The position numbers and the translations under genes were made by a program. A stretch of 64,000 nucleotides of DNA, taken from assembly GCA_964533575.1 (NCBI GenBank), contig CAZHMG010000005.1:1336-65335 (forward strand), read 5' to 3'. The DNA comes from an uncultured Thermoleophilia bacterium. Its GTDB lineage: Bacteria; Actinomycetota; Thermoleophilia; UBA2241. Under the pieces are notes generated by a model. It ran no database searches. It saw only the letters and a list, made by a program, of their open reading frames with translations, and was not told the DNA's origin. This document shows positions 8,259 through 33,012 of this stretch, one piece after another (within the stretch, counting starts at the first letter, position 1; each line of letters opens with the position of its first letter).

Positions 8259-9386
8259 TCAGCGCAGGGCGGCGGCGAGGCGCCGCAACCCCTCCTTCAG
8301 CATCGGGCGCGGGCACGCGAAGTTGAAGCGAAGGAACGAAGGATCGCCGAAGGCGGCGCCGGGCGACGGGGCGACACCGGCGTCCAGGCAGGCCTGCATC
8401 GGATCGGCAGCGGGAACGCGACCGACGTCGAGCCAGGCCAGGTAAGTCGCCTCCACATGACTCATCCCGACGTTCGGCAGCGACGTCGCCACAAACTGCT
8501 CGACCATGTCGCGGTTGCCCCGCAGATAGTCGAGCAGTTCACGCAGCCAGACATCACCGTCCCGGTAGGCCGCCTCCGCGGCGGCAAGAGCAAAGCAGCC
8601 GGGATAGGGCAGCAGTCCCTTGCCGGCGTTCTGAAAGCGCTTGCGCAGAGCGGGATCAGTGATGACCGCAAACGCAAAATTCAGCCCGGGGAGATTGTAC
8701 GTCTTGCTCGGCGACATCAACGTGATGACGGAGCTGCCGGCGTCATCTGCGAGAACGGCGGACGGCGCGTGGACGGGCAGGTCCAGGAGTAGGTCGCAGT
8801 GGACCTCGTCAGAGCACAACAGAATCTGATGACGACGGCAGAAGTCAACGATGGCGGCCAGCTCGTGAGCCTCCCAAGCCCTTCCCAGAGGGTTGTGAGG
8901 ATGGCAGAAGAGGAGGACCCTGGTGTTCCGTGTCACTGCCTTTTCCATGGCGGCGAGGGGGAGCCTCCAGCGGCCATTCTCGCATGCCGCCTGCACGGTG
9001 ATCAGCCTGCGACTGGCGGCGAGTGGTGCGGTCAGGAACGGCGGATAGACCGGAGTGATCGTCATCACCTCGTCGCCGGGCTCTCCAGCCGCGGCACAGG
9101 CCAAGGTGATGCCGGTGACGAGACTCGGCAGCCAGACCAGTGACTCGGGCGCGATGCGCCAGCGGTAGCGCTTCTCCAGATGCGCAACAATCGCCTGCAC
9201 CAGCGAATCCGGGACGACGGAGTATCCGAAGACGCCGTGCCCCGCACGGGCCCGCAGTGCGTCGACGACCGGCGGGGGCGACCTGAAGTCCATATCCGCC
9301 ACCCAGAATGGAAGGACGTCAGCGGGGTAGCGCTCCCACTTGAGACTGCCCGACCCGCGGCGTCTAACCGGATCGTCGAAGTCCAT
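8259..9386 (-). CDS. PLP-dependent aminotransferase class I/II, MalY/PatB-type C-S lyase
   Basis: The PLP-lysine region SPSKTYNLPGLNFAFAV is present. An N-terminal KWERYPADVLPFWVADMDF motif is typical of MalY/PatB beta-cystathionases. The start was chosen at MDFDDPVRRR. Confidence 0.75.
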   Translation of the reverse strand: MDFDDPVRRRGSGSLKWERYPADVLPFWVADMDFRSPPPVVDALRARAGHGVFGYSVVPDSLVQAIVAHLEKRYRWRIAPESLVWLPSLVTGITLACAAAGEPGDEVMTITPVYPPFLTAPLAASRRLITVQAACENGRWRLPLAAMEKAVTRNTRVLLFCHPHNPLGRAWEAHELAAIVDFCRRHQILLCSDEVHCDLLLDLPVHAPSAVLADDAGSSVITLMSPSKTYNLPGLNFAFAVITDPALRKRFQNAGKGLLPYPGCFALAAAEAAYRDGDVWLRELLDYLRGNRDMVEQFVATSLPNVGMSHVEATYLAWLDVGRVPAADPMQACLDAGVAPSPGAAFGDPSFLRFNFACPRPMLKEGLRRLAAALR

Positions 9387-9543
9387 GGCGCGCTCCTCAT
9401 CGGCTCTGACCGTCGACACCGTATCAGACGCGGCCCCGCCGGGGCGACGCCGGCATGGCCGGTCCTGTATCCTTGACGCCATCTCTGGCACACCGTTCGG
9501 CTGCGGGTCTGACCGCTACCGGCGGTCCGTAAGAAGGAAGCTC

Positions 9544-11007
9544 ATGAAGATTCGCCTCATCGAGCCAGATGCCCCCAGCATGCATCTCTGGTCTCAGTCC
9601 AATTTCGTGCGGCTGGGCCTGCCCATGATCGGCGCCGCGCTCAAGGCTCACGGGCACGACGTGCTCATCTACCACCCACATCTGGCCCCGATCGACTGGG
9701 ACGATGTGCATTCTGCTGATCTTGTCGGTCTTTCGAGCACGACGTCGACGACGCCGGCCTCTTATGCCATCGCGGACGATCTGCGGTGGCGCGGTATCCC
9801 CGTCATCCACGGCGGCTCGCACGTCACATTTCTGCCGGAGGAAGCCCTGGAGCACGCCACCTATGTGGCCCGCGGCGAGGGCGGCGAGCAGGTCATGCTG
9901 GAGCTCATCGAGGCTCTCGAGGGCAAGCGGGAGCTCGATTCGGTCACGGGGCTGTCGTTCCTGCGCGACGGCATGCCGGTTCACAACCCGCTGCACGAGC
10001 GGTGCCCCGATCTGGATACGCTGCCGTTCCCGGATCTCACGCTCATCAAAGGGTACGAGAAGCTCTCCAACACGCCGATCATGACAAGCTGGGGCTGTCC
10101 CTTCGCCTGCACCTTCTGCTCGGTCACCGCCATGTTCGGCCGCAAGTACCGGTTCCGCAGCGCGGAGAGCGTCGTCGCCGAGATCAAAGAGAAGAGCCCC
10201 AAGCGCATCTTCTTCTATGACGACAACTTCGCGGCCAACAAGCGACGGCTTAAGCGGCTTCTGCAGATGATGATCGACGAAGGGCTGACCATGCCGTGGG
10301 GCGCGCAGGTCCGAACCGACGTGGCGCGCGACCCCGAGCTCCTCGACCTCATGCGGCGTTCCGGGTGTGAGTTCGTCGCTCTGGGGCTCGAATCCGTGAA
10401 CCAGGAGACTCTGGATCACTTCGAAAAGTCGCAGACGGTCGACGATATAGAGCGATCGATAGCCATCCTGCATCAGTACGGCATCCGCAGCCACGGCATG
10501 TTCGTGCTCGGAGGCGAGCACGACATGCCCCACGTGGTGCGCGATACCGTCACATTCGCGCTCAAGAACCAGATCGACACGGTCATGCTCAACATCCTCA
10601 CGCCGCTGCCGGGAACGCAGCAGTTCGCCGAGTTGGAGGCGGAGGATCGTTTGATCACAAAGGATTGGCAGTACTACGACGCCCAGCACGTCGTTTTCAG
10701 GCCGCGTCAGATGTCTCCACGCCATCTCCTGAGAGAGACCCTGCGGGGCAATCGCCGCTTCTACAGCACCCGGCGAGCAGTCAGGACCATCGTCACGTTC
10801 CTCCAGCGGCGTGACAAATGGAGTTGGGACCGCATGCTTGAGAGTTGCTGGCTCTGGTGGTACGGGCACACGTGGCACAAGGATGCCCGCAACCGCGCAC
10901 ACGAGCGCATGCTGGGGAAGCTTCGACGGCGGGGCAGGGTGGACGTGATCTCCATACCTCCAGCCGCCGTATCCGAGGCGCGAGAGGCGGACGGCGCGCG
11001 AGTCTGA
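9544..11007 (+). CDS. B12-binding domain radical SAM protein (DUF4070-type C-terminus)
   Basis: An N-terminal cobalamin-binding Rossmann-like region (MKIRLIEPDAP...LGLPMIGAALKAHGHDV) is followed by the radical SAM cluster motif CPFACTFC and then a Trp/Arg-rich C-terminal extension. Confidence 0.8.
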   Translation: MKIRLIEPDAPSMHLWSQSNFVRLGLPMIGAALKAHGHDVLIYHPHLAPIDWDDVHSADLVGLSSTTSTTPASYAIADDLRWRGIPVIHGGSHVTFLPEEALEHATYVARGEGGEQVMLELIEALEGKRELDSVTGLSFLRDGMPVHNPLHERCPDLDTLPFPDLTLIKGYEKLSNTPIMTSWGCPFACTFCSVTAMFGRKYRFRSAESVVAEIKEKSPKRIFFYDDNFAANKRRLKRLLQMMIDEGLTMPWGAQVRTDVARDPELLDLMRRSGCEFVALGLESVNQETLDHFEKSQTVDDIERSIAILHQYGIRSHGMFVLGGEHDMPHVVRDTVTFALKNQIDTVMLNILTPLPGTQQFAELEAEDRLITKDWQYYDAQHVVFRPRQMSPRHLLRETLRGNRRFYSTRRAVRTIVTFLQRRDKWSWDRMLESCWLWWYGHTWHKDARNRAHERMLGKLRRRGRVDVISIPPAAVSEAREADGARV

Positions 11008-15198: not shown

Positions 15199-16674
15199 CT
15201 AGCCCAGGAAGCGGCGCAAGCTCGCGGCCCGGACGACGAGATCAGAGAGCCCGTCCTTCTGCTCGTCGCGCACGAGTCGGCTGATGGTGTGCACGACATC
15301 GACATGCTCGGCTTCGCCCCCTGCCGGCAGCCCCAGCCTTTCGACTGCCGCCCGCACCTCGGGGGGCATGTATGGGCTGTCCAGATCGGCGAAGCGCAGG
15401 GCGTCCCGCAGGTCCGCATCAAAGTGGCGGTACATGGATCGGAGGAACGCCATGTCTGTATCGCCGAGCGCCGAAAGACCCAGCAGTTCCGGCGGCACGC
15501 CCAGAGAGTACATGGCGGCTGTGAACGATATCGCCCGCGGGAGCTGCGCCGAGCCGACATTGCGTGAGTAGCCGAAAAGCCCTACATGAAGCTTCCGCTT
15601 CCGCCGGCTGGGAACCGAGCGCGCGATCGCGTTGATGCTCGGCGCGAGGATCTGCACTTGGCGCTGGTACTCGGCAGAGTAGCGATCGATCAGGTCGTGA
15701 CACCCGGCTTCGTCCATCTCGTGAGCACGGCGAGTCGCACGGTCCCGCAGGTACCGGACGGCATTCATCACGTCTGCTGGGGCGTTGTCGTACTTGAACG
15801 CCGACTGAACTGTGAAGGTCTCCACGCTGGGATACTCCTGGGCGACCCGGGCGACGTTCGCCGGAGAGAGGTTGCCGCGAAACGGCGCCGATCCCGCTCC
15901 GAGAATCGGATGAATCGCAATGCCGGTTCGGTCCTGCAGGCGCTCGAGGCGCCAGAGGGCGATCTTCGTCATCAGCACCGCGCTGACGATGCCGTAGTTC
16001 ATGGCGGGATCCGATCGCGCCAAGAAGACGCGCTGATCCGTCGTGCTCTTGCCGCCGAGGTAGGCCTCAGTGATGCGGTCCGCGGTGAGCAGGTGCGGCA
16101 GATCTTCGAACAGCGGAATCACGTTGATGGTGTCCGGTTTGAACTCGCCGATCCACTGGGCAATGGAGATATCGCCGGCAAAGAACGTCTGATTCTGCCG
16201 GGCGACGATGAAGTCGCGGTAGTAATGATAGACGCGATCGATGCACTTCTCTGAGGTCGTCATGGGGAGGATGACCTCGAAGATGGGCGGCAGGTCGTCG
16301 CCGAACACGTGTTTCGATGCGTCGAACGACCGGGGGATGCTCTCGAGTGTCTCTATCAGGATCTTGGCCTCGGCCCTCTCAACTGTCGGGTTCGGCACGC
16401 GCAGCGTGAGGAAGACGTCGCGACCGAGCCGCTGTTCGGTGAAGTACGGCTCGTGGCGGGTCAGCAGCTTCTTGACGACGAAGGAGTCGACCTCCTTGCC
16501 CTCGACGTCCCACATCTGTTCGTCGCATCCGAGATGTGAGAAGGCGTAGTACGCTTCTTGGACCTCGTCTTCGCCGCTCAGTTCTGGTCCGGAAGCGAAG
16601 AAGGGGACGTTGACGTTGTCCGGATGCTGCGTGCTCATGCAGCGGGGGATGGTGCGCGCTGCCTCTCTCGTCAT
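15199..16674 (-). CDS. archaeal-type phosphoenolpyruvate carboxylase (PepcA family)
   Basis: The hallmark N-terminus MSTQHPDNVNVPFF is present, and the size (about 490 aa) and overall composition match atPEPC rather than the 900-aa bacterial Ppc. The start is either MTREAA (16674) or MSTQHP (16638). Confidence 0.75.
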   Translation of the reverse strand: MTREAARTIPRCMSTQHPDNVNVPFFASGPELSGEDEVQEAYYAFSHLGCDEQMWDVEGKEVDSFVVKKLLTRHEPYFTEQRLGRDVFLTLRVPNPTVERAEAKILIETLESIPRSFDASKHVFGDDLPPIFEVILPMTTSEKCIDRVYHYYRDFIVARQNQTFFAGDISIAQWIGEFKPDTINVIPLFEDLPHLLTADRITEAYLGGKSTTDQRVFLARSDPAMNYGIVSAVLMTKIALWRLERLQDRTGIAIHPILGAGSAPFRGNLSPANVARVAQEYPSVETFTVQSAFKYDNAPADVMNAVRYLRDRATRRAHEMDEAGCHDLIDRYSAEYQRQVQILAPSINAIARSVPSRRKRKLHVGLFGYSRNVGSAQLPRAISFTAAMYSLGVPPELLGLSALGDTDMAFLRSMYRHFDADLRDALRFADLDSPYMPPEVRAAVERLGLPAGGEAEHVDVVHTISRLVRDEQKDGLSDLVVRAASLRRFLG

Positions 16675-16858
16675 CGTGGCCTCATTCCGGCTCGCCGTTC
16701 GGCACTGGTGGGTGGCGCAATAGTACCCGCGACGGCGCGCGGGCGTCACGTGCGCGTCCTGACAACGTCGGACTCGCCCTCAGCAGGGGGTAGCATCCTG
16801 CCATCCCAGCAAGACGCTGCTGAGCCCATCGGCAGAATTCGTCATTGAAAGGAGTCTC

Positions 16859-22366: not shown

Positions 22367-22948
22367 GTGAACATACGGGAACAGATTCTGGCGCCGCTGA
22401 CGCAGATTCGCGATCGCGGCCAGAAGCTCGTCCAGCTCAACATCGAGTTGCTGAAGGCAGAGCTCAAGGAGAAGGGCGCCCGCTATGCGGGCGCCCTCGC
22501 TCTGCTCGTCGTCGCCGGCGTGCTTGCCTTGTATGCCCTCGGATTCGTGCTTGTGACGATCACCGTCGCGCTCTCGCTGGTCCTTCCGCTGTGGCTGTCG
22601 CTGCTGATCGTGACGGTGGTCCTCCTGCTGCTCGTGGTCGTGCTCGCTGTCGTCGGCCGGAATCGACTGAAGCAGGCCGGGACTCCAGCTCCCGAACGTG
22701 CAGTGGCGGAGGGACAAGCCACAGTGGTGATGGTGAAGGGGAAGGTCGAGCAGTCGGTGAGCAGCTCGCGATCACACTGGTCCCGCACCCGCAGTCCCCA
22801 TCGTCCTCCGGGACAGGCCCCGCCCCACACGCCCAGGTGGCCCGTCAGGCCTGAGGCGAAGACGCCGGCGACGACTCCCGGCAGGGAGCCGGAGAGGGTG
22901 GCCGGAACCGATACATCGACACAGACTGGGCGGGTGGAGCAGACATGA
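22367..22948 (+). CDS. Holin-X / phage-holin-superfamily-III-like membrane protein (DUF1469-like)
   Basis: An amphipathic N-terminus is followed by two TM helices (LALLVVAGVLALYALGFVLVTITVAL; LWLSLLIVTVVLLLLVVVLAVV). The tail is Pro/Arg-rich and disordered. Confidence 0.55.
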   Translation: MNIREQILAPLTQIRDRGQKLVQLNIELLKAELKEKGARYAGALALLVVAGVLALYALGFVLVTITVALSLVLPLWLSLLIVTVVLLLLVVVLAVVGRNRLKQAGTPAPERAVAEGQATVVMVKGKVEQSVSSSRSHWSRTRSPHRPPGQAPPHTPRWPVRPEAKTPATTPGREPERVAGTDTSTQTGRVEQT

Positions 22949-23208
22949 GTGATTCCTTGCCTGGGCGGCAGAGAACGCCGGAGGAAATCGCGCAGGATGT
23001 GCGTCGCGGACGTGAGCGATTGGCTGAGTCCCTCGACGATCTGCAGCAAGGCATTGACAGGGCTGCTGAGGAGTCACGTGTCAGAGTGGATCAAGTCGCG
23101 GCCACGACTCGGCGGGCTGCTCCCTTCGTCGCCGGCGCAGCCGTTACCATATTCGTGGGGGGCGCGCTCCTCCGCCGCCGCGCGCGGCGCTTGTATCGTC
23201 GCGATTAG
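22945..23208 (+). CDS. DUF3618-family protein (usual partner of Holin-X)
   Basis: The 87-aa protein has the PEEIAQDVRRGRERLAESLDDLQ helix and a C-terminal TM segment (AAVTIFVGGALL). There is a 4-nt overlap with the upstream gene. Confidence 0.5.
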   Translation: MSDSLPGRQRTPEEIAQDVRRGRERLAESLDDLQQGIDRAAEESRVRVDQVAATTRRAAPFVAGAAVTIFVGGALLRRRARRLYRRD

Positions 23209-23226: not shown

Positions 23227-24297
23227 TTGCCGGCCTGCCGCCGGAGTGCATCCGTTGTGAGTCGAGCGCTCATATCCGGACGTCTCGTGGCGAGCGCGGG
23301 CGTGGCGAGAGTGCGTGATCGTCCCCACACACTCAGTCATCTCATCACGTCCCGGTGCAACGCTCGCTGCCGCACCTGCCTCTGGCGGGGAGACAACGAC
23401 GACGACCTCGACACGGACGCGATCGCGTGGCTCTACACCCAAGCCGCGCGTCTGGGCATAGGCCAGCTCGTCGTCTGGGGCGGCGAGCCGCTGTTGCGTC
23501 CGGATCTTGAGGACGTCCTGCTCATTGCCCGCCGTCGTGGCCTCTTCGTGACGCTGATCACCAACGGCTGGCTGATCCCGGAGCGCTGGGCTGGTCTACG
23601 GAAAAATGTGGACGCCCTGATTCTCAGTCTGGACGACGTGGGCGAGGCACACGACGGCTTGAGGGGCTTGCCGGGGCTGTACGATCGTCTGGACGCATTC
23701 GCCCTATCGCTTCGCTCGCACGCCGTGCGTCCAACTCTGCTCGTGAACACGGTGCTCTCCCGCCAGAACGCCGGCGCCCTGCCACGCGTTGCCGCCGCGG
23801 CGCGGCGCTGGGGCGCCGGGCTGTACTTCTGCCCGATGCAGACGGGTGAGATGCGCGCCGGCTCCTTCGTGGAGAGGAAGGCCGGCTTGGGCCTGTCGAG
23901 CGAGGCACTCATGGTGGCCGCCCGGGAGGCGCGGCTGCTCAAGGCCCGGGGGTATCCCATTTTGAATACGAAGGCCTATCTCGATCTGCTCCAGCGCGAC
24001 CCGGAGCTCAAGTCTTACCGGTGCCGCGCTCCACACGCCGTGATCACGGCAGCCGCCGACGGCGCCATCCGCGACTGCCGCCGGCATGACGAGCCACTTG
24101 CCAGGGTCGATCAGATGCGGCAGTCCCATCTGCCTTTGTCCACGGTACTGGCGTTGCCGCGGCGCCGTCAGTTGCTCACTGAGGCAACCACCTGTACCGT
24201 CTGCAACAATCCGGACGTCATCGAACTCTCCTGGCTCTGGGATATGCATCCGGCGATGCTGGGCAAGTTCCTCCAGCTCGCCGGACGGCGACGTTGA
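23227..24297 (+). CDS. radical SAM protein with SPASM/twitch-like C-terminal Cys motif
   Basis: The motif CNARCRTC (Cx3Cx2C) is followed by a GGEPLL glycine-rich SAM motif. The C-terminus reads C-x11-G-x4-C ... CTVC, as in SPASM auxiliary-cluster domains. Confidence 0.7.
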   Translation: MPACRRSASVVSRALISGRLVASAGVARVRDRPHTLSHLITSRCNARCRTCLWRGDNDDDLDTDAIAWLYTQAARLGIGQLVVWGGEPLLRPDLEDVLLIARRRGLFVTLITNGWLIPERWAGLRKNVDALILSLDDVGEAHDGLRGLPGLYDRLDAFALSLRSHAVRPTLLVNTVLSRQNAGALPRVAAAARRWGAGLYFCPMQTGEMRAGSFVERKAGLGLSSEALMVAAREARLLKARGYPILNTKAYLDLLQRDPELKSYRCRAPHAVITAAADGAIRDCRRHDEPLARVDQMRQSHLPLSTVLALPRRRQLLTEATTCTVCNNPDVIELSWLWDMHPAMLGKFLQLAGRRR

Positions 24298-24306
24298 ACG
24301 CGTCTC

Positions 24307-25566
24307 TCAGTAGCGCAGGATCGCCGCGATCTCCGCTTGGTGAGGCATGCGCTCGTCCTCAAGCGCGTACACATTTCCGCCTTTCGCGATGGTCTCGACA
24401 AGCGCCCTGTCGAGCAACTCCTCGTCTCCGAGCTGACGCTCGTCGTGAACGGAGGGCACACCCGACTCGTTGTCGACCGCGCCCCAGACGGACGCCCCGT
24501 CCGCGAGGAGCAGCGTACCCACTCGCCCCTGCATGGCGGCAGGAAGGACGGCCGCCACTCCATGCAGTGCCTCGCCATGAGCCTCTCGGATCTCATACTT
24601 GTCGCGCTCCCCGTCGGCCCGTGCCAACACACGCGGCTCGATCAGCGCCCACGTTCGCGCGTGCAACAGCCCGTCGTCGAGCTGCTCTGTATTGCCATCG
24701 GCCGCGTCCTGCATGACGTGTCTGTATCGCGTGGCGGAGCGGAACAGGGGCAGGAGGTACTCGATGCCGGCCAGCAAGAGTGGATCCCGCTCGTCACGGA
24801 GGACCTCCATCACGCTCGCGTCAAGCTGGCGGAAGTACTCGAGGAGCCGTTCGTCGTCGTCGTCGCTGGCCTGCCCGTGACCGTGAAAGACGGCCGTGCT
24901 TCGATTGCCGACGCGAGCGCCGGTCCTGACCTGGAACTGCCGCTCCTGGCCCTCCACGGTTTCGAGCAGGTCATCCAGGCTGGCCGGCGCGCCTCGCAGG
25001 TCGATATCCTCCAGCCCGAAGCGATCCCCGCGCAAGAGCCGCGGCCCGCGGCGGTTCAGCGTGAGAACAAAGTATGTCTGGTCCCGCACCAGGCCGAGGA
25101 CGAGGGGTCGCAGATTGAAACGCGTGCCGGCTACAGCCATCTCGGGCACGGAGAACGGGACTTGGAAGGTGCGCATGGTGTCCGGCGTCAAGAAGACCGC
25201 AAGGCCCGCGTCCTGGTGGCTCCAGAAGAGGGTGTCACCCACGAGGTCGCGAGCTGGCTGCAGGAGAGAGGCGACCTCAGGTGTCCGCTGCCCGGACGCT
25301 TCGAGCTCGGACGCTGCCCGATCAAGGAGATTGCGGAAGCGCAGTGGATCCTGGACGATCTCGCGACCCCTTCTGTGCACGGGGACATAGATGGTGACTC
25401 GAGACTCGCCTCTGTCGTCCTGAAGCGCCGTGACATCGTTCCACGTCGGAGTGATCAGGTGGCTCACCTGCCTTTCGCCTCGCGCGAGTATGTACAAGCC
25501 GAGGGCCGGATGCTGGAGGACCGTCCACGATCCCGGACTGTCCGCTTCGGTCCATCGGTAAACCAT
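24307..25566 (-). CDS. bacterial eRF1/Pelota-like protein (baeRF / Vms1-type candidate peptidyl-tRNA hydrolase)
   Basis: The central segment AVFHGHGQASDDDDERLLEYFRQLD parallels eRF1 domain 2 (HGRGGQSALRF...NYVRKVAE). The C-terminus ...AEIAAILRY matches the eRF1/Pelota domain-3 ending GGIGGILRY. The start was chosen at MVYRWTEAD; the first 103 codons of the ORF are Pro/Ala-rich and probably non-coding. Confidence 0.5.
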   Translation of the reverse strand: MVYRWTEADSPGSWTVLQHPALGLYILARGERQVSHLITPTWNDVTALQDDRGESRVTIYVPVHRRGREIVQDPLRFRNLLDRAASELEASGQRTPEVASLLQPARDLVGDTLFWSHQDAGLAVFLTPDTMRTFQVPFSVPEMAVAGTRFNLRPLVLGLVRDQTYFVLTLNRRGPRLLRGDRFGLEDIDLRGAPASLDDLLETVEGQERQFQVRTGARVGNRSTAVFHGHGQASDDDDERLLEYFRQLDASVMEVLRDERDPLLLAGIEYLLPLFRSATRYRHVMQDAADGNTEQLDDGLLHARTWALIEPRVLARADGERDKYEIREAHGEALHGVAAVLPAAMQGRVGTLLLADGASVWGAVDNESGVPSVHDERQLGDEELLDRALVETIAKGGNVYALEDERMPHQAEIAAILRY

Positions 25567-25663
25567 CGCTGCTGACGAGGCGAGTCCAGTCGTCTGCTCG
25601 AACGTTGAACGGGAGGGCGCCGGAAGGATAGGCTGGCTCAACGGCGGCAGGGGGTGGACGACC

Positions 25664-26074
25664 ATGCTGAGTCGCTTCCGCGGCCCCGACCCGATCATGC
25701 AGGTGTTGTTCCAACTGATCACCCATATCGTGACGATCGCGGGGACCGCGGGAGGTCGTAGCGTCTTGCTAGTACTCGCCATTACCATCCACAATGTCCG
25801 TGAGGGGTTCGCGGTGGGCGTGGCGTGCGGCGCCACGGCGGCAGGGCTCCCGGGGGCAACACGTGGGGTGGCCATGGCGCGCGCACGGGGAATCGGTATT
25901 CAGCATGTTCCGGAAGGCGCTGAAGCGTCATGGCCGGTGATCCGCGTGCGCCTGTCACGCGCACAGCTTCTGGTGAAGTCTGTACTCAGGCGTGGTGGAG
26001 CTGCTGGTCGTCGCACCAGTGAGAGCGATGCGCGCCTTGCTGTGATGATGCTCCGGGAAGTGGCGATTGGCTGA
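25664..26074 (+). pseudogene. decayed fragment of a ZIP-family (ZupT/GufA-like) metal transporter
   Basis: Two ZIP signature motifs occur in order: LAITIHNVREGFAVGVACGA (HNxPEG with Pro replaced by Arg) and GIGIQHVPEGAEAS. The N-terminal half is missing and the C-terminal part is non-hydrophobic. Confidence 0.4.
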
Positions 26075-27959: not shown

Positions 27960-28904
27960 ATGAGCGCTTGGTACCGTGCCCACAGAGTGACGGATGTGGC
28001 CGAGTGGACCGCGCTGTTCTCGACCGTTGAGCATCCCCGCATCACGCAGTCCTGGGCCTACGGGGAGGCCAAGCAGGCTGCGGCCGACTGGCACACGCGG
28101 CGAGTAGTCTTCGACGCGGGAGGCTGGCGCGCCCGGCGGCTCGTCATCAGCCGCCGCGGCGAACCGGTGGCGATCTGTCAGATACTGGACAAGTGCGTGG
28201 CCGGCGTCACCGTTGGGTCGCGGCTCAATCGCGGACCGCTGCTGCTCGGCCCCGACCCCGGCGAAGACACGACCAGGGACATCTATCGCCTGCTCAAAGG
28301 CAATGCGGTGCGCTCCTGCCGCCCGCTCGTCCTGGCACCGGCCTTGCCGGACACTCCCGAGGCCCATCGTCTGCTCAGCGAGCTCGGGTATCGGCCACGA
28401 CAGGCGCCCGGCTGGGTCTCCGACCGCGTGGACCTGCGCCCGGACGAAGAGCAGCTTCACAAGAACCTCCACAGGAACTGGTGCTGGGCCTTGCGCCGTG
28501 CCCAGAGAGAGGGCGTCGAGTTCCGGGTCTGCGACTCGACCGAGGATCTCGAGTGGCTTCTGGAACGGCACGTGGAGCACATGAAGGAGAAGCAGTTCGT
28601 CGGCATGCAGCCCGCCAGCGACGACTTCCTGGTCGCTCAGGTGCTGCTCGACGGCGAGCGATTGGGCGGTTCCATCACATGCCGCTTCGGCTGCATGGCG
28701 GAGGGCCTAGTCTTCTGGGTCGGACAGAATGGGCGACACATCAGCGCCGGCAACTACCTTGACTGGCGGGTCGCCGTGGAGCTGAAGCGCCGCGGGAGTC
28801 AGTGGTTCGACCTCGGAGGCAAGCGCGCCGGCGCCACGGAGCAGTTCAAAGCGGGCATGGGCGGCGTCGAGTATCGGCTGCTCAATGAGTGGGTGGCGTT
28901 CTGA
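27960..28904 (+). CDS. FemAB/FemX-like aminoacyltransferase-fold protein (GNAT Acetyltransf_6-like), paralog A
   Basis: N-terminal ITQSWAYGEAKQ...WH.RRVVFDAGG and the C-terminal WFDLGGKRAGATEQFKAGMGG resemble the FemX/FemAB lipid II aminoacyltransferase family. It lies 190 nt downstream of the priming GT. Confidence 0.5.
   Translation: MSAWYRAHRVTDVAEWTALFSTVEHPRITQSWAYGEAKQAAADWHTRRVVFDAGGWRARRLVISRRGEPVAICQILDKCVAGVTVGSRLNRGPLLLGPDPGEDTTRDIYRLLKGNAVRSCRPLVLAPALPDTPEAHRLLSELGYRPRQAPGWVSDRVDLRPDEEQLHKNLHRNWCWALRRAQREGVEFRVCDSTEDLEWLLERHVEHMKEKQFVGMQPASDDFLVAQVLLDGERLGGSITCRFGCMAEGLVFWVGQNGRHISAGNYLDWRVAVELKRRGSQWFDLGGKRAGATEQFKAGMGGVEYRLLNEWVAF
27987..28615. repeat. direct repeat copy A: 629-bp block about 99.8% identical to 29145..29774
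   Basis: By eye the nucleotide alignment is identical except for one substitution (ccccgcatc vs ccccacatc). The block spans the 5' two-thirds of FemAB-like paralog A. Confidence 0.9.
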
Positions 28905-29093: not shown

Positions 29094-30095
29094 ATGACGA
29101 CTGCAGGCAGCGCGGATCTGAAGACCGACTACAGCGTCGATCTGGTGACGGATGCGGCCGAGTGGACCGCGCTGTTCTCGACCGTTGAGCATCCCCACAT
29201 CACGCAGTCCTGGGCCTACGGGGAGGCCAAGCAGGCTGCGGCCGACTGGCACACGCGGCGAGTAGTCTTCGACGCGGGAGGCTGGCGCGCCCGGCGGCTC
29301 GTCATCAGCCGCCGCGGCGAACCGGTGGCGATCTGTCAGATACTGGACAAGTGCGTGGCCGGCGTCACCGTTGGGTCGCGGCTCAATCGCGGACCGCTGC
29401 TGCTCGGCCCCGACCCCGGCGAAGACACGACCAGGGACATCTATCGCCTGCTCAAAGGCAATGCGGTGCGCTCCTGCCGCCCGCTCGTCCTGGCACCGGC
29501 CTTGCCGGACACTCCCGAGGCCCATCGTCTGCTCAGCGAGCTCGGGTATCGGCCACGACAGGCGCCCGGCTGGGTCTCCGACCGCGTGGACCTGCGCCCG
29601 GACGAAGAGCAGCTTCACAAGAACCTCCACAGGAACTGGTGCTGGGCCTTGCGCCGTGCCCAGAGAGAGGGCGTCGAGTTCCGGGTCTGCGACTCGACCG
29701 AGGATCTCGAGTGGCTTCTGGAACGGCACGTGGAGCACATGAAGGAGAAGCAGTTCGTCGGCATGCAGCCCGCCTTCCTCAGAGCCCTGCGCGACGCCGT
29801 GCCCGCCGGCGACGACTTCCTGGTCTCCCAGGTGCGGCTTGCGGATGAGCCGATCGGAGGCTTGATCACCTATCGTTTCGGCAGTGTCGCCGAGGGCCTC
29901 ATCCTCTGCGTGGGACCGGAGGCCCGGCGCGTGAATGCCTGCCGATTTCTCGACTGGCACACCGCTCTCGAGCTGAAGCGCCGCGGGTGTGAGTGGTTCG
30001 ACCTGGGAGGCAAACGCGCCGGCGCCACGGAGCAGTTCAAGGGAGGCATGGGCGGCGTCGAGTATGGGCTGCTCACTGAGTGGACGGTGCTCTGA
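29094..30095 (+). CDS. FemAB/FemX-like aminoacyltransferase-fold protein, paralog B
   Basis: Residues are identical to paralog A from AEWTALFS to GMQPA. It then diverges by a 33-nt insertion and about 80% identity to the end (WFDLGGKRAGATEQFKGGMGG). There is an RBS-like aggggag upstream of the ATG at 29094. Confidence 0.5.
   Translation: MTTAGSADLKTDYSVDLVTDAAEWTALFSTVEHPHITQSWAYGEAKQAAADWHTRRVVFDAGGWRARRLVISRRGEPVAICQILDKCVAGVTVGSRLNRGPLLLGPDPGEDTTRDIYRLLKGNAVRSCRPLVLAPALPDTPEAHRLLSELGYRPRQAPGWVSDRVDLRPDEEQLHKNLHRNWCWALRRAQREGVEFRVCDSTEDLEWLLERHVEHMKEKQFVGMQPAFLRALRDAVPAGDDFLVSQVRLADEPIGGLITYRFGSVAEGLILCVGPEARRVNACRFLDWHTALELKRRGCEWFDLGGKRAGATEQFKGGMGGVEYGLLTEWTVL
29145..29774. repeat. direct repeat copy B (partner of 27987..28615)
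   Basis: See copy A. The spacing is about 1158 bp. Confidence 0.9.
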
Positions 30096-30137: not shown

Positions 30138-31421
30138 TCATGAGAGGCGCGCGATCCCGCTGCCAGCCTGAGGTAAGGGAGCGACTGATGCCAAGCCGGT
30201 GGCCTCGGCACAGAAGCTGAGTTCGGCTCGCGACCCGCGCATGATCATCATCTTCGGCCTGCAGGCCCGCAACAAGGATTTCAGCCTCGAGGCGTTGTCA
30301 CGCGACCCGAGATGCTGATCGAGGTCACCCAGCGCGATCACGACCCTCGTGCATCCGTCGGCGGCGTCTGCAGGGCTAGCGGCGGCATCGGTCATGTCGG
30401 CAATGGCGAAGGCTCCTCCGTAGGCCCTTCTCATACGCTGGAGCATCTCAAGCTCACGTGCGTTGGCGGCAACAGCGACGCAATCGAACCCGCCGGCCTC
30501 CAGGGTCTTCGCCGCATAGCCCCATGCGGGGGTGATATCAACGATCGTCGCGGGCGGGATGGGCAGCATTCTGCGCACGTGCTCCACCGCCTGCACGCGA
30601 TCATGTCGGTGCGGTATTCCCCACAGGTCCGGGTGGAGGAGGGGCTCGGGAGCCTGGCCGCCGAGGGCGATGCAGGCGCGTGCGACCTCGATGCGCAGGC
30701 CGCTCCATTCCGCGTGGCGAGCTGCTATCCAGACCGGGATCTCGGGAACGCCGACCGCCTTTGCGATGGCCAGCCTGTGCCCTCCTTGGCATACCTGCAG
30801 CTCTCCATCGCGAGCGATGACGACGCTGATTTCGTCGAACTGCAGCGGCTTGTACCCGGCTGGCCGCAGCGCTGCGAGCTCGTCCTGGGAGAGATAGCCG
30901 TCGCGGCGCATGGACTCGTAGATGCGCTCATACCTGAGCAGGACGTCGCGGGCCTCAAGCAAGCGCTCCTGACGCCGCCAGGCGCGCCTCTCTGTGAGAG
31001 CACGACCGGCGAATCGCGCGTGGATTTCCGTACCCTCCCATGGTCGCGTTCCTTCGAGGGCCTCTCGCATCTGCACGTAGTACGTGCGTTCCTCGATCAC
31101 CCATGCGTGCAGGTCCCAGTCACCGGCAATCACTGCTCCCGGATGGAGCGTCGGGTAGTAATCTCCGGGGATCTCCGTGTGCCGGCGCAGCAGGGAAGTC
31201 GGAATTCTCACGACTCTGGCAACGTCGATGTAGGGATCCGTGCGTCGCAGCTGCGCAGCGCGAAGTCGTTTCCTGAATGCGCTCACGTGCAACTGCCGGC
31301 GGACGTCGTTTGCGTGGGTGTGAACGGCAGGGCATGCCGCGAGGGCGCAATCAAGCCGTCGCGCCAGAAGGTGGAGTGTCTCTCCGATTTCACGTGCACC
31401 GAGCATCGTCGTGAGCGGCAT
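30138..31421 (-). CDS. hypothetical multidomain protein with a ParB/sulfiredoxin-like segment and a C-terminal FkbM-like methyltransferase-fold segment
   Basis: FDEISVVIARDGELQVCQGGHRLAIAKAVGVPEIPVWI resembles the ParB N-terminal domain (LIAGERRWRAAKLAGL region). The C-terminal IVDITPAWGYAAKTLEAGGFDCVAVAANARELEML follows the FkbM pattern VIDVGAN.G.....G..V.AFEPNP. The start is at MPLTT with RBS ggtgaggaaagg. Confidence 0.35.
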   Translation of the reverse strand: MPLTTMLGAREIGETLHLLARRLDCALAACPAVHTHANDVRRQLHVSAFRKRLRAAQLRRTDPYIDVARVVRIPTSLLRRHTEIPGDYYPTLHPGAVIAGDWDLHAWVIEERTYYVQMREALEGTRPWEGTEIHARFAGRALTERRAWRRQERLLEARDVLLRYERIYESMRRDGYLSQDELAALRPAGYKPLQFDEISVVIARDGELQVCQGGHRLAIAKAVGVPEIPVWIAARHAEWSGLRIEVARACIALGGQAPEPLLHPDLWGIPHRHDRVQAVEHVRRMLPIPPATIVDITPAWGYAAKTLEAGGFDCVAVAANARELEMLQRMRRAYGGAFAIADMTDAAASPADAADGCTRVVIALGDLDQHLGSRDNASRLKSLLRACRPKMMIMRGSRAELSFCAEATGLASVAPLPQAGSGIARLS

Positions 31422-31599
31422 CGTGATCGTCCTTTCCTCACCTGAAACGCTTCCGCTGCCGAATATGGGACATGGGAGCAGCGTCACGATACTCCTATCG
31501 ACAACGATCCGGCGGTCCGCCCATCATGACCATAGGTAAGATGTGACGTTCATTCATTTGGGCATACCGGGGTATCGGCCGACTTGAGACGGAGTGTGA

Positions 31600-33012
31600 A
31601 TGCAGTACCTTGATCGACTTCGCGGCTACTATGTGCGCGCCCCTCGTTGGGTTCATACCACGGGAGGCTTTGCCTTAGCTGCGCTGCCACCACATCTCAT
31701 TTACGGCAGGACGTTCCGAGAGGTCCAAGCTGAGGTGGGTCGCAGCGAATGGGACGCAGGCTTTGTCGAAGGTCGTGTGCAAGCGTCTCTCGCGACAGTG
31801 TGGGACCACGCGAAGCGGACCGCCTATTATCAAGAGCTGGCCGGCTCTCTTGGCGGTGAGGAGCTGACACCGGACAATCTCTCTCGGCTCCCGATCCTCG
31901 ATAAGGAGAGCGTGCGCCGGCGGGTACAGGACATGCTGGCCAAACCTCTCGCCGACATGGACGAGGTATCGACGGGAGGCACATCGTCCATGATGCCGTT
32001 GACGTTCTACCTCGACAAGGACAGGAGCGTGAGGGAATGGGCCTTCCTCACGCATCTGTGGCAGAGATTCGGCTACGAAGTGGGCGACCGGCTCGCCGTC
32101 CTGGGCTATCGGGGTGTGACGCACGTCTCAAGGCCCTCGTCCACGCCCTGGACCTGGGAGCCGGGTACCCGCGAGTTGCGACTATCGCCCCTGCGCATGG
32201 TGCCGCCGGTGATGGACGAGTATCTCGTCCAGATCCGCCGCTTCAAGATCAACTTCATCTATGGGTACCCCTCTGCGATCGCCATCCTGGCCGCTCACGC
32301 CGCCAGCAGCGGCTGGTCCAGGCCGGCCTCATTCAAGGGGGTGCTCCTCATGTCGGAGTCGGTGCGGCCCCTGCAGCGGGAGATCATCCGCGACGGGTTC
32401 GGCGGCGTGCCTGTCATGGCAGGCTACGGTCTCAGCGAGAAGGTTGCGATCGGCGGGGAGATTCCCGGTCAGCCTGACGTGTACGAGTTCGAGCCGCTCT
32501 ATGGCGCTGCCGAACTCGTCGATGCTGCCGGGAACCCCATCACTGAGCCCGGCCAGAAGGGCAGACTCGTCGGCACCGGATTTGTCTCACTCGGTATGCC
32601 GATGATTCGCTACGACACAGGAGATCTCGCGATCTCCGTCCGGAGTCCGGGGGCGGAGAACTGCTGGCGCCTTCGCGTGCGCAACATCACCTCACGTCAC
32701 TGCCAGGACTACCTTGTGACCCGGGAGAAAGGCCTGATCTCACACACCGTCCTCTATCCGCACAACAGGATCATCAGGGAGTGCCAGTTCGTGCAGGACC
32801 AGCCTGGAGCCGCGCTGCTGCGTGTGGTCCTCTTGCCCGGGACCAGTCCAGCCGATCTGGTGGCTTTCAGTCAGAAGATCAAAGAGCGGGCGGACGGCCT
32901 GATCTCAGTGCACCTGGAGCCGGTCGATGAGATCCGTCTCACTCGGCGGGGCAAGAGAGTCCTCGTCGAGCAGCACCTGGATTTACGGCAGTACGGGCTG
33001 GCCGATGAGTAG
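31600..33012 (+). CDS. CapK-like adenylate-forming enzyme (phenylacetate-CoA ligase family)
   Basis: The AMP-binding core STGGTSSMMPLTFY and the overall PaaK/CapK-like layout are present. It sits within the polysaccharide locus. Confidence 0.7.
   Translation: MQYLDRLRGYYVRAPRWVHTTGGFALAALPPHLIYGRTFREVQAEVGRSEWDAGFVEGRVQASLATVWDHAKRTAYYQELAGSLGGEELTPDNLSRLPILDKESVRRRVQDMLAKPLADMDEVSTGGTSSMMPLTFYLDKDRSVREWAFLTHLWQRFGYEVGDRLAVLGYRGVTHVSRPSSTPWTWEPGTRELRLSPLRMVPPVMDEYLVQIRRFKINFIYGYPSAIAILAAHAASSGWSRPASFKGVLLMSESVRPLQREIIRDGFGGVPVMAGYGLSEKVAIGGEIPGQPDVYEFEPLYGAAELVDAAGNPITEPGQKGRLVGTGFVSLGMPMIRYDTGDLAISVRSPGAENCWRLRVRNITSRHCQDYLVTREKGLISHTVLYPHNRIIRECQFVQDQPGAALLRVVLLPGTSPADLVAFSQKIKERADGLISVHLEPVDEIRLTRRGKRVLVEQHLDLRQYGLADE

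Follow-up and report, generated by a model that had tools for sequence, protein, structure and literature searches.

What kind of protein does a bacterium encode when a gene product has the fold of the release factors aRF1 and eRF1 but no GGQ motif: a peptide-releasing enzyme, or a factor that sits on the ribosome without catalysis? The question is raised by a minus-strand gene of the window analysed here, a 64,000-nucleotide stretch of contig CAZHMG010000005.1 from an uncultured Thermoleophilia bacterium. Its open reading frame, with the 3' limit at 24307, is real and carries the segment VFHGHGQASDDDDERLLEYFRQLD and the C-terminal AEIAAILRY, in which an earlier sequence-only reading had recognized an eRF1/Pelota-superfamily protein. 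That recognition, made from the raw sequence, was correct. The functional inference attached to it, a Vms1-like peptidyl-tRNA hydrolase with a retained catalytic glutamine, does not hold. By analogy with Balon of Psychrobacter urativorans (AOC03_06830; PDB 8RD8/8RDV/8RDW; PMC10901736), the protein is probably a non-catalytic factor that would sit in the A site of 70S ribosomes, idle or stalled, and shield their decoding and peptidyl-transferase centres. Residue numbers refer to a 386-residue form of the protein unless stated otherwise; adding 33 converts them to a 419-residue form.

Family membership and fold

The best Pfam match of the window protein was baeRF_family7 (PF18849), with 128.4-128.6 bits (E 3e-37) over positions 1-144 of the 144-position profile and a gathering threshold of 27.2 bits. 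The models for family3 (113 bits, E 3e-32), family6 (94 bits, E 1e-26), family8 and family11 were also matched above their gathering scores. In contrast, the eRF1 models (eRF1_1/2/3) and the VLRF1 model gave no match even at E <= 10. The NCBIfam model NF052287 (AOC03_06830 family ribosome hibernation factor) aligned end to end, from position 2 to 361 of 361, with E 1e-35. A phmmer search of the PDB returned Balon chain 8rd8_B as its sole match (E 7.9e-12, residues 47-419 of the query in 419-residue numbering against 7-369). When a profile of 84 family members was used instead of the single sequence, Balon was matched over its full length with E 7.9e-47, Msmeg1130 with E 3.6e-10, and Rv2629 with E 0.28. 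By these values, the baeRF7-type family lies nearer to Psychrobacter Balon than to its mycobacterial counterparts.

The structural comparison pointed in the same direction. An AlphaFold2 model computed on the family alignment had a mean predicted local distance difference test score (pLDDT) of 92.4 and a predicted template modelling score (pTM) of 0.85, with lower confidence (pLDDT 56-62) at about residues 170-200. In a Foldseek search of the PDB with this model, the seven best matches comprised one aRF1 and the full set of six Balon chains. The top five ranks went to Psychrobacter Balon and Msmeg1130 (template modelling score, TM, 0.73-0.81; E 1e-25 to 3e-19), followed by aRF1 4af1 at rank 6 (E 6e-16) and Rv2629 at rank 7 (TM 0.64-0.67, E 2.8e-14). 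Further aRF1 and eRF1 entries (to E 1e-10, TM about 0.4 or less) and then Pelota and Dom34 (E 1e-8 to 1e-6) ranked lower, so that Balon stood well ahead of the release factors and of Pelota. The Foldseek probability was 1.00 to Balon, aRF1, eRF1, Pelota and Dom34, and the three-domain aeRF1/Pelota fold was recovered in the model. The eRF1-superfamily signal is well past chance. The protein is a member of the eRF1 superfamily and of Pfam family baeRF7, which is close to baeRF3, the family containing Balon.

Balon was the best structural match (TM 0.74-0.81) and has the same three-domain, aeRF1-like architecture, although the two proteins are only 24.5% identical over 408 columns (BLASTP). The operational definition of a Balon homolog in PMC10901736, namely detectability from Balon with HMMER, a length above 300 residues and the presence of all three domains, applies to the window protein. 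So do two further features given there, the absence of NIKS and GGQ and the beta-hairpin insertion in the C-terminal domain; a motif search of the protein found no GGQ, NIKS or HP string. Both proteins are acidic (pI 5.0 for the 386-residue form, 4.8 for Balon), and both end in RY. This terminal RY, which the sequence-only reading had likened to the end of eRF1 and Pelota, is a signature of the whole family, with R385 kept in 118 of 120 homologs. The hairpin lies at the position of the Balon hairpin that contacts EF-Tu, and a similar contact may be expected from what has been described for Balon (PMC10901736). Its W-G pair is conserved in the family (W328 in 115 and G329 in 118 of 120 homologs) and absent from Balon. 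In the N-terminal domain, the family consensus T-H-R..QDPI..KN is common to Balon, and the window protein reads V-H-R..QDP.

Some features separate the two proteins. Balon THREHPAND, with the only HP of its N-terminal domain, aligns with VHRRGREI of the window protein. We take this aligned dipeptide to be the "HP motif" of PMC10901736; the window protein lacks it. At this position the family has G in 93 of 120 homologs, followed by R, P or T, and Msmeg1130 also lacks HP there. The best Pfam family is baeRF7 for the window protein and baeRF3 for Balon. When residues 7-369 of Balon, reconstructed from the phmmer alignment to 8rd8_B, were scored, baeRF_family3 gave 106 bits and family7 28 bits; on family3 the window protein outscores Balon itself.

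Other members of the superfamily were less similar. Msmeg1130 and Rv2629 (PDB 8V9J/8V9L/8V9K), which have been shown to bind the ribosomal A site (PMC10901736), have the same fold (TM 0.64-0.78) but are far more distant in sequence. The baeRF-1 clade to which Pfam baeRF_family7 belongs (PMC6514570) shares with the window protein the three-domain layout and a two-strand insert in the Pelota domain, and nothing excludes membership. The release factors aRF1 and eRF1 have a homologous fold (Foldseek E 6e-16 to 1e-10), the same domain order, a loop in the same place and a C-terminus like ..ILRY, but they differ in having GGQ, NIKS and the eRF1_1/2/3 Pfam domains, and the global TM is only about 0.4. 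Identity with a class-I release factor was rejected on the lack of GGQ, NIKS and any eRF1 Pfam match. Vms1/ANKZF1 (VLRF-1) proteins share the superfamily core with its RNase-H-like middle domain. In VLRF-1 families a glutamine is conserved (GxuQ or GGxSQ), and either the Pelota or the N-terminal domain has been lost (PMC6514570). The Vms1-like label of the sequence-only reading was dropped, since the glutamine is not conserved, no VLRF1 model matched and both flanking domains are present.

Proteins of this type had been supposed to be rare, but they are not. When 1.84 billion cluster representatives (50% identity) were searched with a profile, 12,861 relatives were found at E <= 1e-3, 6,105 of them at E <= 1e-30. 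They carry names such as "baeRF7 domain-containing protein", "baeRF3 domain-containing protein" and "hypothetical protein" in the source databases, and their hosts include Acidobacteriota, Chloroflexota, Cyanobacteriota, Planctomycetota, Actinomycetota (among them Acidimicrobiia) and other phyla. A scan of genome contigs with the single protein found only two loci, both in metagenome-assembled genomes of Acidimicrobiales (38-39% identity). For Balon, homologs have been reported in 1,572 representative species of 23 phyla (PMC10901736). The supposition that such homologs are poorly characterized does not extend to the closest solved relatives, the Balons, which have been seen on ribosomes by cryo-EM (PMC10901736). 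The window protein is an ordinary, uncharacterized representative of a family that is already known and very large.

The loop tip in place of the GGQ loop

The HGHGQ segment highlighted by the sequence-only reading does lie in the loop that takes the place of the GGQ loop. Inspection of the alignment at the glutamine gave a different result from the one that had been expected. Of 120 homologs, only 2 have a glutamine at this residue, Q199 (Q232 in the 419-residue form). It is absent from the nine closest relatives (50-64% identical), where the sequence is GHGA, GHGG, GHGL or GHGD. A catalytic glutamine as a family feature was rejected, as the residue was not conserved in alignments of 120, 270 or 382 homologs.

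The residues just before it are the ones that are constrained. A census of the loop tip in 382 members found F or Y in 359, H in 353, G in 369, H in 247 or Q in 100, and G in 346, which defines the conserved motif [FY]-H-G-[H/Q]-G. The window protein has a histidine, H197, at the H/Q position. G196 is the most conserved residue of the loop (117 of 120 homologs, 369 of 382 members, and invariant in the alignment of 84 sequences). At the H/Q position, at least about 44 swaps between histidine and glutamine were counted on a neighbour-joining tree, some of them between proteins that are 73-87% identical. These repeated swaps suggest a hydrogen-bonding role at this position that either side chain may serve. 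Judged from these alignments, few parts of the family are conserved as strongly as the H-G-[H/Q]-G tip, and this is one modest new point of the analysis. It sets the family apart from the widespread baeRF-1 families 1, 2 and 6, in which loop conservation is poor (PMC6514570).

The surroundings of the tip are less regular. In the model, the middle domain has an extra helix (165-183) and a long loop (184-198) with low pLDDT, and the length of this loop varies across the family from 6 to 21 residues, mostly 14-17. The middle domain of Balon carries a lasso loop and a bL27 trap (PMC10901736). The loop of the window protein is about 10 residues longer than its probable counterpart in Balon, the lasso loop, and differs from it in sequence, with a tip F-H-G-H-G compared with T-G-D-G-G. 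When the family profile was compared with human eRF1 in hhalign, using an approximate eRF1 sequence, only an insignificant match at the boundary of the N-terminal and middle domains was obtained (Prob 0.7), and the residue-level equivalence of GGQ and HGHGQ can be placed only to within about 2 residues.

We also note that the window protein and its nearest relatives have an acidic run, DDDDE, where the helix following the loop begins (K238 to D column, 419-residue numbering). The same column holds a conserved lysine in most of the family (215 of 270); Psychrobacter Balon also lacks the lysine. Arg243 of the family is replaced by glutamate in the window protein.

Proposed function and alternatives

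Balon lacks GGQ and NIKS and binds in the A site of vacant as well as translating ribosomes, while the peptidyl-transferase centre stays inert (PMC10901736). For baeRF-1 families that lack the glutamine, Burroughs and Aravind predicted a role as non-catalytic binders or inhibitors of the A site (PMC6514570). A Balon-like role of the window protein, which we consider probable, would take the following form. Under starvation or stress, the protein would enter the A site of the 70S ribosome as a protein mimic of tRNA. Its N-terminal domain would lie at the decoding centre but would not read mRNA, the F-H-G-H-G tip of the middle domain would be directed at the peptidyl-transferase centre but would not release a peptide, and the C-terminal domain with its hairpin would face the EF-Tu and stalk side. 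Binding of tRNAs and factors would be blocked, and idle ribosomes would be protected. Homology and fold are the grounds on which we infer ribosome binding, any contact with EF-Tu, expression linked to stress and an absence of hydrolase activity.

Several observations weigh against such a role. Instead of the HP dipeptide of Balon, the window protein has G-R and the family has G-[R/P/T]. The longer loop carries a conserved H-G-[H/Q]-G that Balon lacks, and contacts at the peptidyl-transferase centre may differ from those of Balon. The NF052287 score of 124 bits falls short of the equivalog cutoff of 330, and the score for NF052289 (Rv2629 family RHF) is 19.8 compared with a cutoff of 320, so the protein is not an equivalog by NCBI criteria. 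Neighbours of the HPF/RaiA, RtcB or chaperone (Hsp20) type, reported for many Balon genes, adjoined none of the 10 distinct homolog loci surveyed. We know of no baeRF7 member that has been tested biochemically. A literature search for studies of baeRF7 or YocB returned nothing beyond PMC10901736 and PMC6514570. According to a 2026 preprint, native hibernating ribosomes of Synechocystis carry both a Balon homolog and LrtA, the HPF homolog, and the Balon homolog contacts the decoding and peptidyl-transferase centres in a manner that differs from Psychrobacter (10.64898/2026.07.03.736309). The preprint gives no gene identifier, and no Synechocystis entry was among the 120 matches listed in a search from a Nostoc member.

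The conserved loop tip could also be read as the mark of an active peptidyl-tRNA hydrolase, that is an alternative release or rescue factor in which Q199 or H197 positions a water molecule in the peptidyl-transferase centre. The place of the loop, directly before the long helix of the middle domain, and the degree of conservation of its tip, above all of G196, are in line with this idea; 26% of the 382 members read H-G-Q-G and so contain Gly-Gln, and Burroughs and Aravind allowed for hydrolases in a few baeRF-1 families with a conserved glutamine (PMC6514570). Nevertheless, we regard hydrolysis as quite unlikely. The glutamine that had been proposed is nearly absent from the homologs, the conserved H/Q position is occupied by histidine in the window protein, and the loop varies widely in length, whereas in catalytic families a conserved glutamine goes together with a tightly fixed loop length (PMC6514570). 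The closest solved relatives are non-catalytic and leave the peptidyl-transferase centre inert (PMC10901736), and neither a GGQ nor an eRF1 or VLRF1 Pfam match was found. It is the strong constraint on H-G-[H/Q]-G alone that keeps a hydrolase under consideration. The repeated histidine/glutamine swaps led us to consider, as an unlikely variant, that baeRF7 is a mechanistically distinct branch of the Balon group whose longer H-G-[H/Q]-G loop engages the peptidyl-transferase centre directly. The loop could retain or regain a water-positioning, release-like activity, with histidine or glutamine replacing the glutamine of GGQ, or it could lock A2602 or the CCA end in the P site, unlike Psychrobacter Balon.

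In another non-catalytic reading, a factor akin to Pelota/Dom34 or to RRF would recognize stalled or hibernating ribosomes and promote subunit splitting or reactivation rather than protect them passively. Foldseek did match the model to Pelota and Dom34, a Dom34-like mechanism was considered for baeRF-1 by Burroughs and Aravind (PMC6514570), and Balon and chloroplast RRF contact equivalent sites, which has raised the possibility of a reactivation role (10.64898/2026.07.03.736309). We give this option little weight, as the TM to Pelota was 0.25-0.35 compared with 0.74-0.81 to Balon, and no gene for a GTPase or ATPase partner adjoined any surveyed homolog. ABCE1, the partner used by Pelota, is not known from bacteria. 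The genes next to the baeRF gene, described below, are the basis for a last alternative, in which the protein would act in a conflict or defence cassette with a radical SAM and a holin-like gene. The radical SAM protein weakly matches viperin models (PADLOC pVip, 51 bits; NCBIfam viperin, 46 bits compared with a cutoff of 180), and a Holin-X family protein is encoded 1.4 kb away. These viperin matches cover the generic radical SAM core only and are far under the cutoffs, no PADLOC model matches the baeRF protein, and the baeRF gene runs toward the radical SAM and holin genes and shares no operon with them. In the close relative L003 the baeRF gene is kept without either of them, and distant homologs lie in unrelated, lineage-specific housekeeping regions. 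The synteny survey largely refutes a cassette, and we consider it highly improbable.

The gene, its start and its surroundings

The public NCBI record (P0001) gives the protein 419 residues from an ATG at 25566, the 5' limit also adopted in the sequence-only reading, and the open frame extends further still, to 522 residues (24307-25875, minus strand). The longest frame would overlap a ZIP transporter remnant on the opposite strand. The additional N-terminal residues of the 419- and 522-residue forms are not matched in homologs; when 120 of these were aligned, most had their N-terminal methionine at residue 37 of the 419-residue form. A block GAAAGG(C/G)AG-GTG-AGC is common to the window and three related contigs (L003, L004 and L006), and the called start in L004 is this GTG. 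Because of the homolog N-termini and the conserved GAAAGG..GTG block, translation most likely starts at GTG 25467 and yields 386 residues; the 419-residue form is probably too long. The coordinates of the gene, its domains and adjoining features are collected in Table 1. The GC content at third codon positions (GC3) is 0.79, which is typical of genes in the window. No paralog was found in the window by tblastn, and a promoter and terminator scan around the gene found nothing above the shuffled expectation.

Table 1. Features of the baeRF7/Balon-type gene and its immediate neighbours in the window.
Feature	Position	Strand	Basis and remarks
baeRF7/Balon-type gene	24307..25467	-	386 residues and stop; probable start GTG 25467-25465; stop 24309-24307; translation checked
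Candidate Shine-Dalgarno sequence GAAAGG	25471..25476	-	3 nt upstream of GTG; block kept in three related contigs
N-terminal domain (about residues 1-127)	25087..25467	-	place of the decoding-centre-binding domain; secondary structure of the model, alignment to Balon 8rd8_B
Middle domain, RNase-H-like (about residues 128-280)	24628..25086	-	Pfam baeRF_family7 spans residues 132-278; model
Loop tip F194-H195-G196-H197-G198, then Q199	24871..24888	-	place of the eRF1 GGQ loop, directly before long helix 199-223; translation FHGHGQ
C-terminal Pelota-like domain (about residues 281-386), ending AAILRY	24310..24627	-	model; alignment to the Balon C-terminus ...ALVTRY
Beta-hairpin insertion of the C-terminal domain, SVWGAVDNESGVPSVHD	24442..24492	-	strands 328-331 and 338-341 (DSSP of the model); aligned with Balon YIQAAKVDEDAQTLTM
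Radical SAM gene	23227..24297	+	convergent with the baeRF gene, 9 bases between stop codons; PF04055 E 1.6e-12; only sub-threshold NCBIfam matches
ZIP metal transporter remnant	25664..26074	+	divergent from the intact baeRF gene; tblastn with intact ZIP proteins (271-289 residues) at the same position in relatives
Small open reading frame after Holin-X	22945-23208	+	DUF3618 only at E = 1

The intergenic region between the baeRF gene and the ZIP remnant (25468-25663, minus strand) contains short blocks that are kept among relatives, for example CCGAAGCGGACA and CAGCCTAT. The matching stretches are at about 7828-8100 in L003, 7356-7510 in L004 and 3218-3440 in L006. Judged by this conservation, the blocks could be shared promoter or operator elements; a simple scan of the region found no sigma-70-like promoter.

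The identification of the neighbouring genes in the sequence-only reading was borne out for the convergent radical SAM gene, for Holin-X (PF07332, E 2e-25) and for the decayed ZIP transporter, which tblastn confirmed, but not for DUF3618, where the small open reading frame scored 10 bits compared with a cutoff of 24.9. Small open reading frames of 79-89 residues at the same position in relatives have no Pfam match either. The ZIP remnant keeps about 30 N-terminal residues and a 68-residue core (about 70% identical), without roughly residues 32-120 and the last 80 or so, and its HNxPEG motif has become HNVREG. The radical SAM gene is present in contigs L004 to L006 and absent from L003. Its product has a CxxxCxxC motif (CNARCRTC) and a C-terminal CX12GX4C followed by CX2C, resembling a partial SPASM or twitch domain; no curated family cutoff was reached, the best match being the PTO1314 family with 79 compared with 306 bits.

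The neighbourhood as a whole, taken earlier to look accessory, is not so. Contigs encoding proteins 54-57% identical to the window protein keep the order of a DHO_dh-like gene, Holin-X, the small open reading frame and a radical SAM gene convergent with the baeRF gene, with a divergent ZIP transporter and a Bac_transf sugar transferase on the other flank. In L003 the holin and radical SAM genes are absent, and the baeRF and ZIP genes are kept. The window has a uniform GC content (0.62-0.67), with central metabolism upstream (PFOR, archaeal-type phosphoenolpyruvate (PEP) carboxylase, aminotransferases, MsrA, MntP) and a polysaccharide cluster downstream. The site is a stable chromosomal one with a standalone gene, and no accessory island.

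Further observations concern the wider window. The upstream metabolic region encodes the archaeal-type PEP carboxylase (PF14010, 614 bits) and a B12-binding radical SAM protein, at 15199-16749 (minus strand) and 9340-11007 (plus strand), respectively. An Acetyltransf_6 (FemAB-like GNAT) gene is tandemly duplicated at 27987-28904 and 29145-30095 (plus strand), where one 300-nt block recurs with 99% identity 1158 nt further on and a second block, of 295 nt, recurs with 77% identity after 1191 nt; of the two copies, the first has the weaker Pfam match (30 compared with 64 bits). Two open reading frames of the polysaccharide cluster, 30138-31487 (minus strand, 449 residues) and 31600-33012 (plus strand, 470 residues), have no Pfam match at E <= 1e-4.

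With its start codon moved, a "hypothetical protein" can now be named a baeRF7/Balon-type putative ribosome hibernation factor. It belongs to a very large baeRF7-type family that is not reached by the two hibernation-factor models of NCBI. The H-G-[H/Q]-G loop of this family is a clear target for mutagenesis and could show how Balon-like factors handle the peptidyl-transferase centre.

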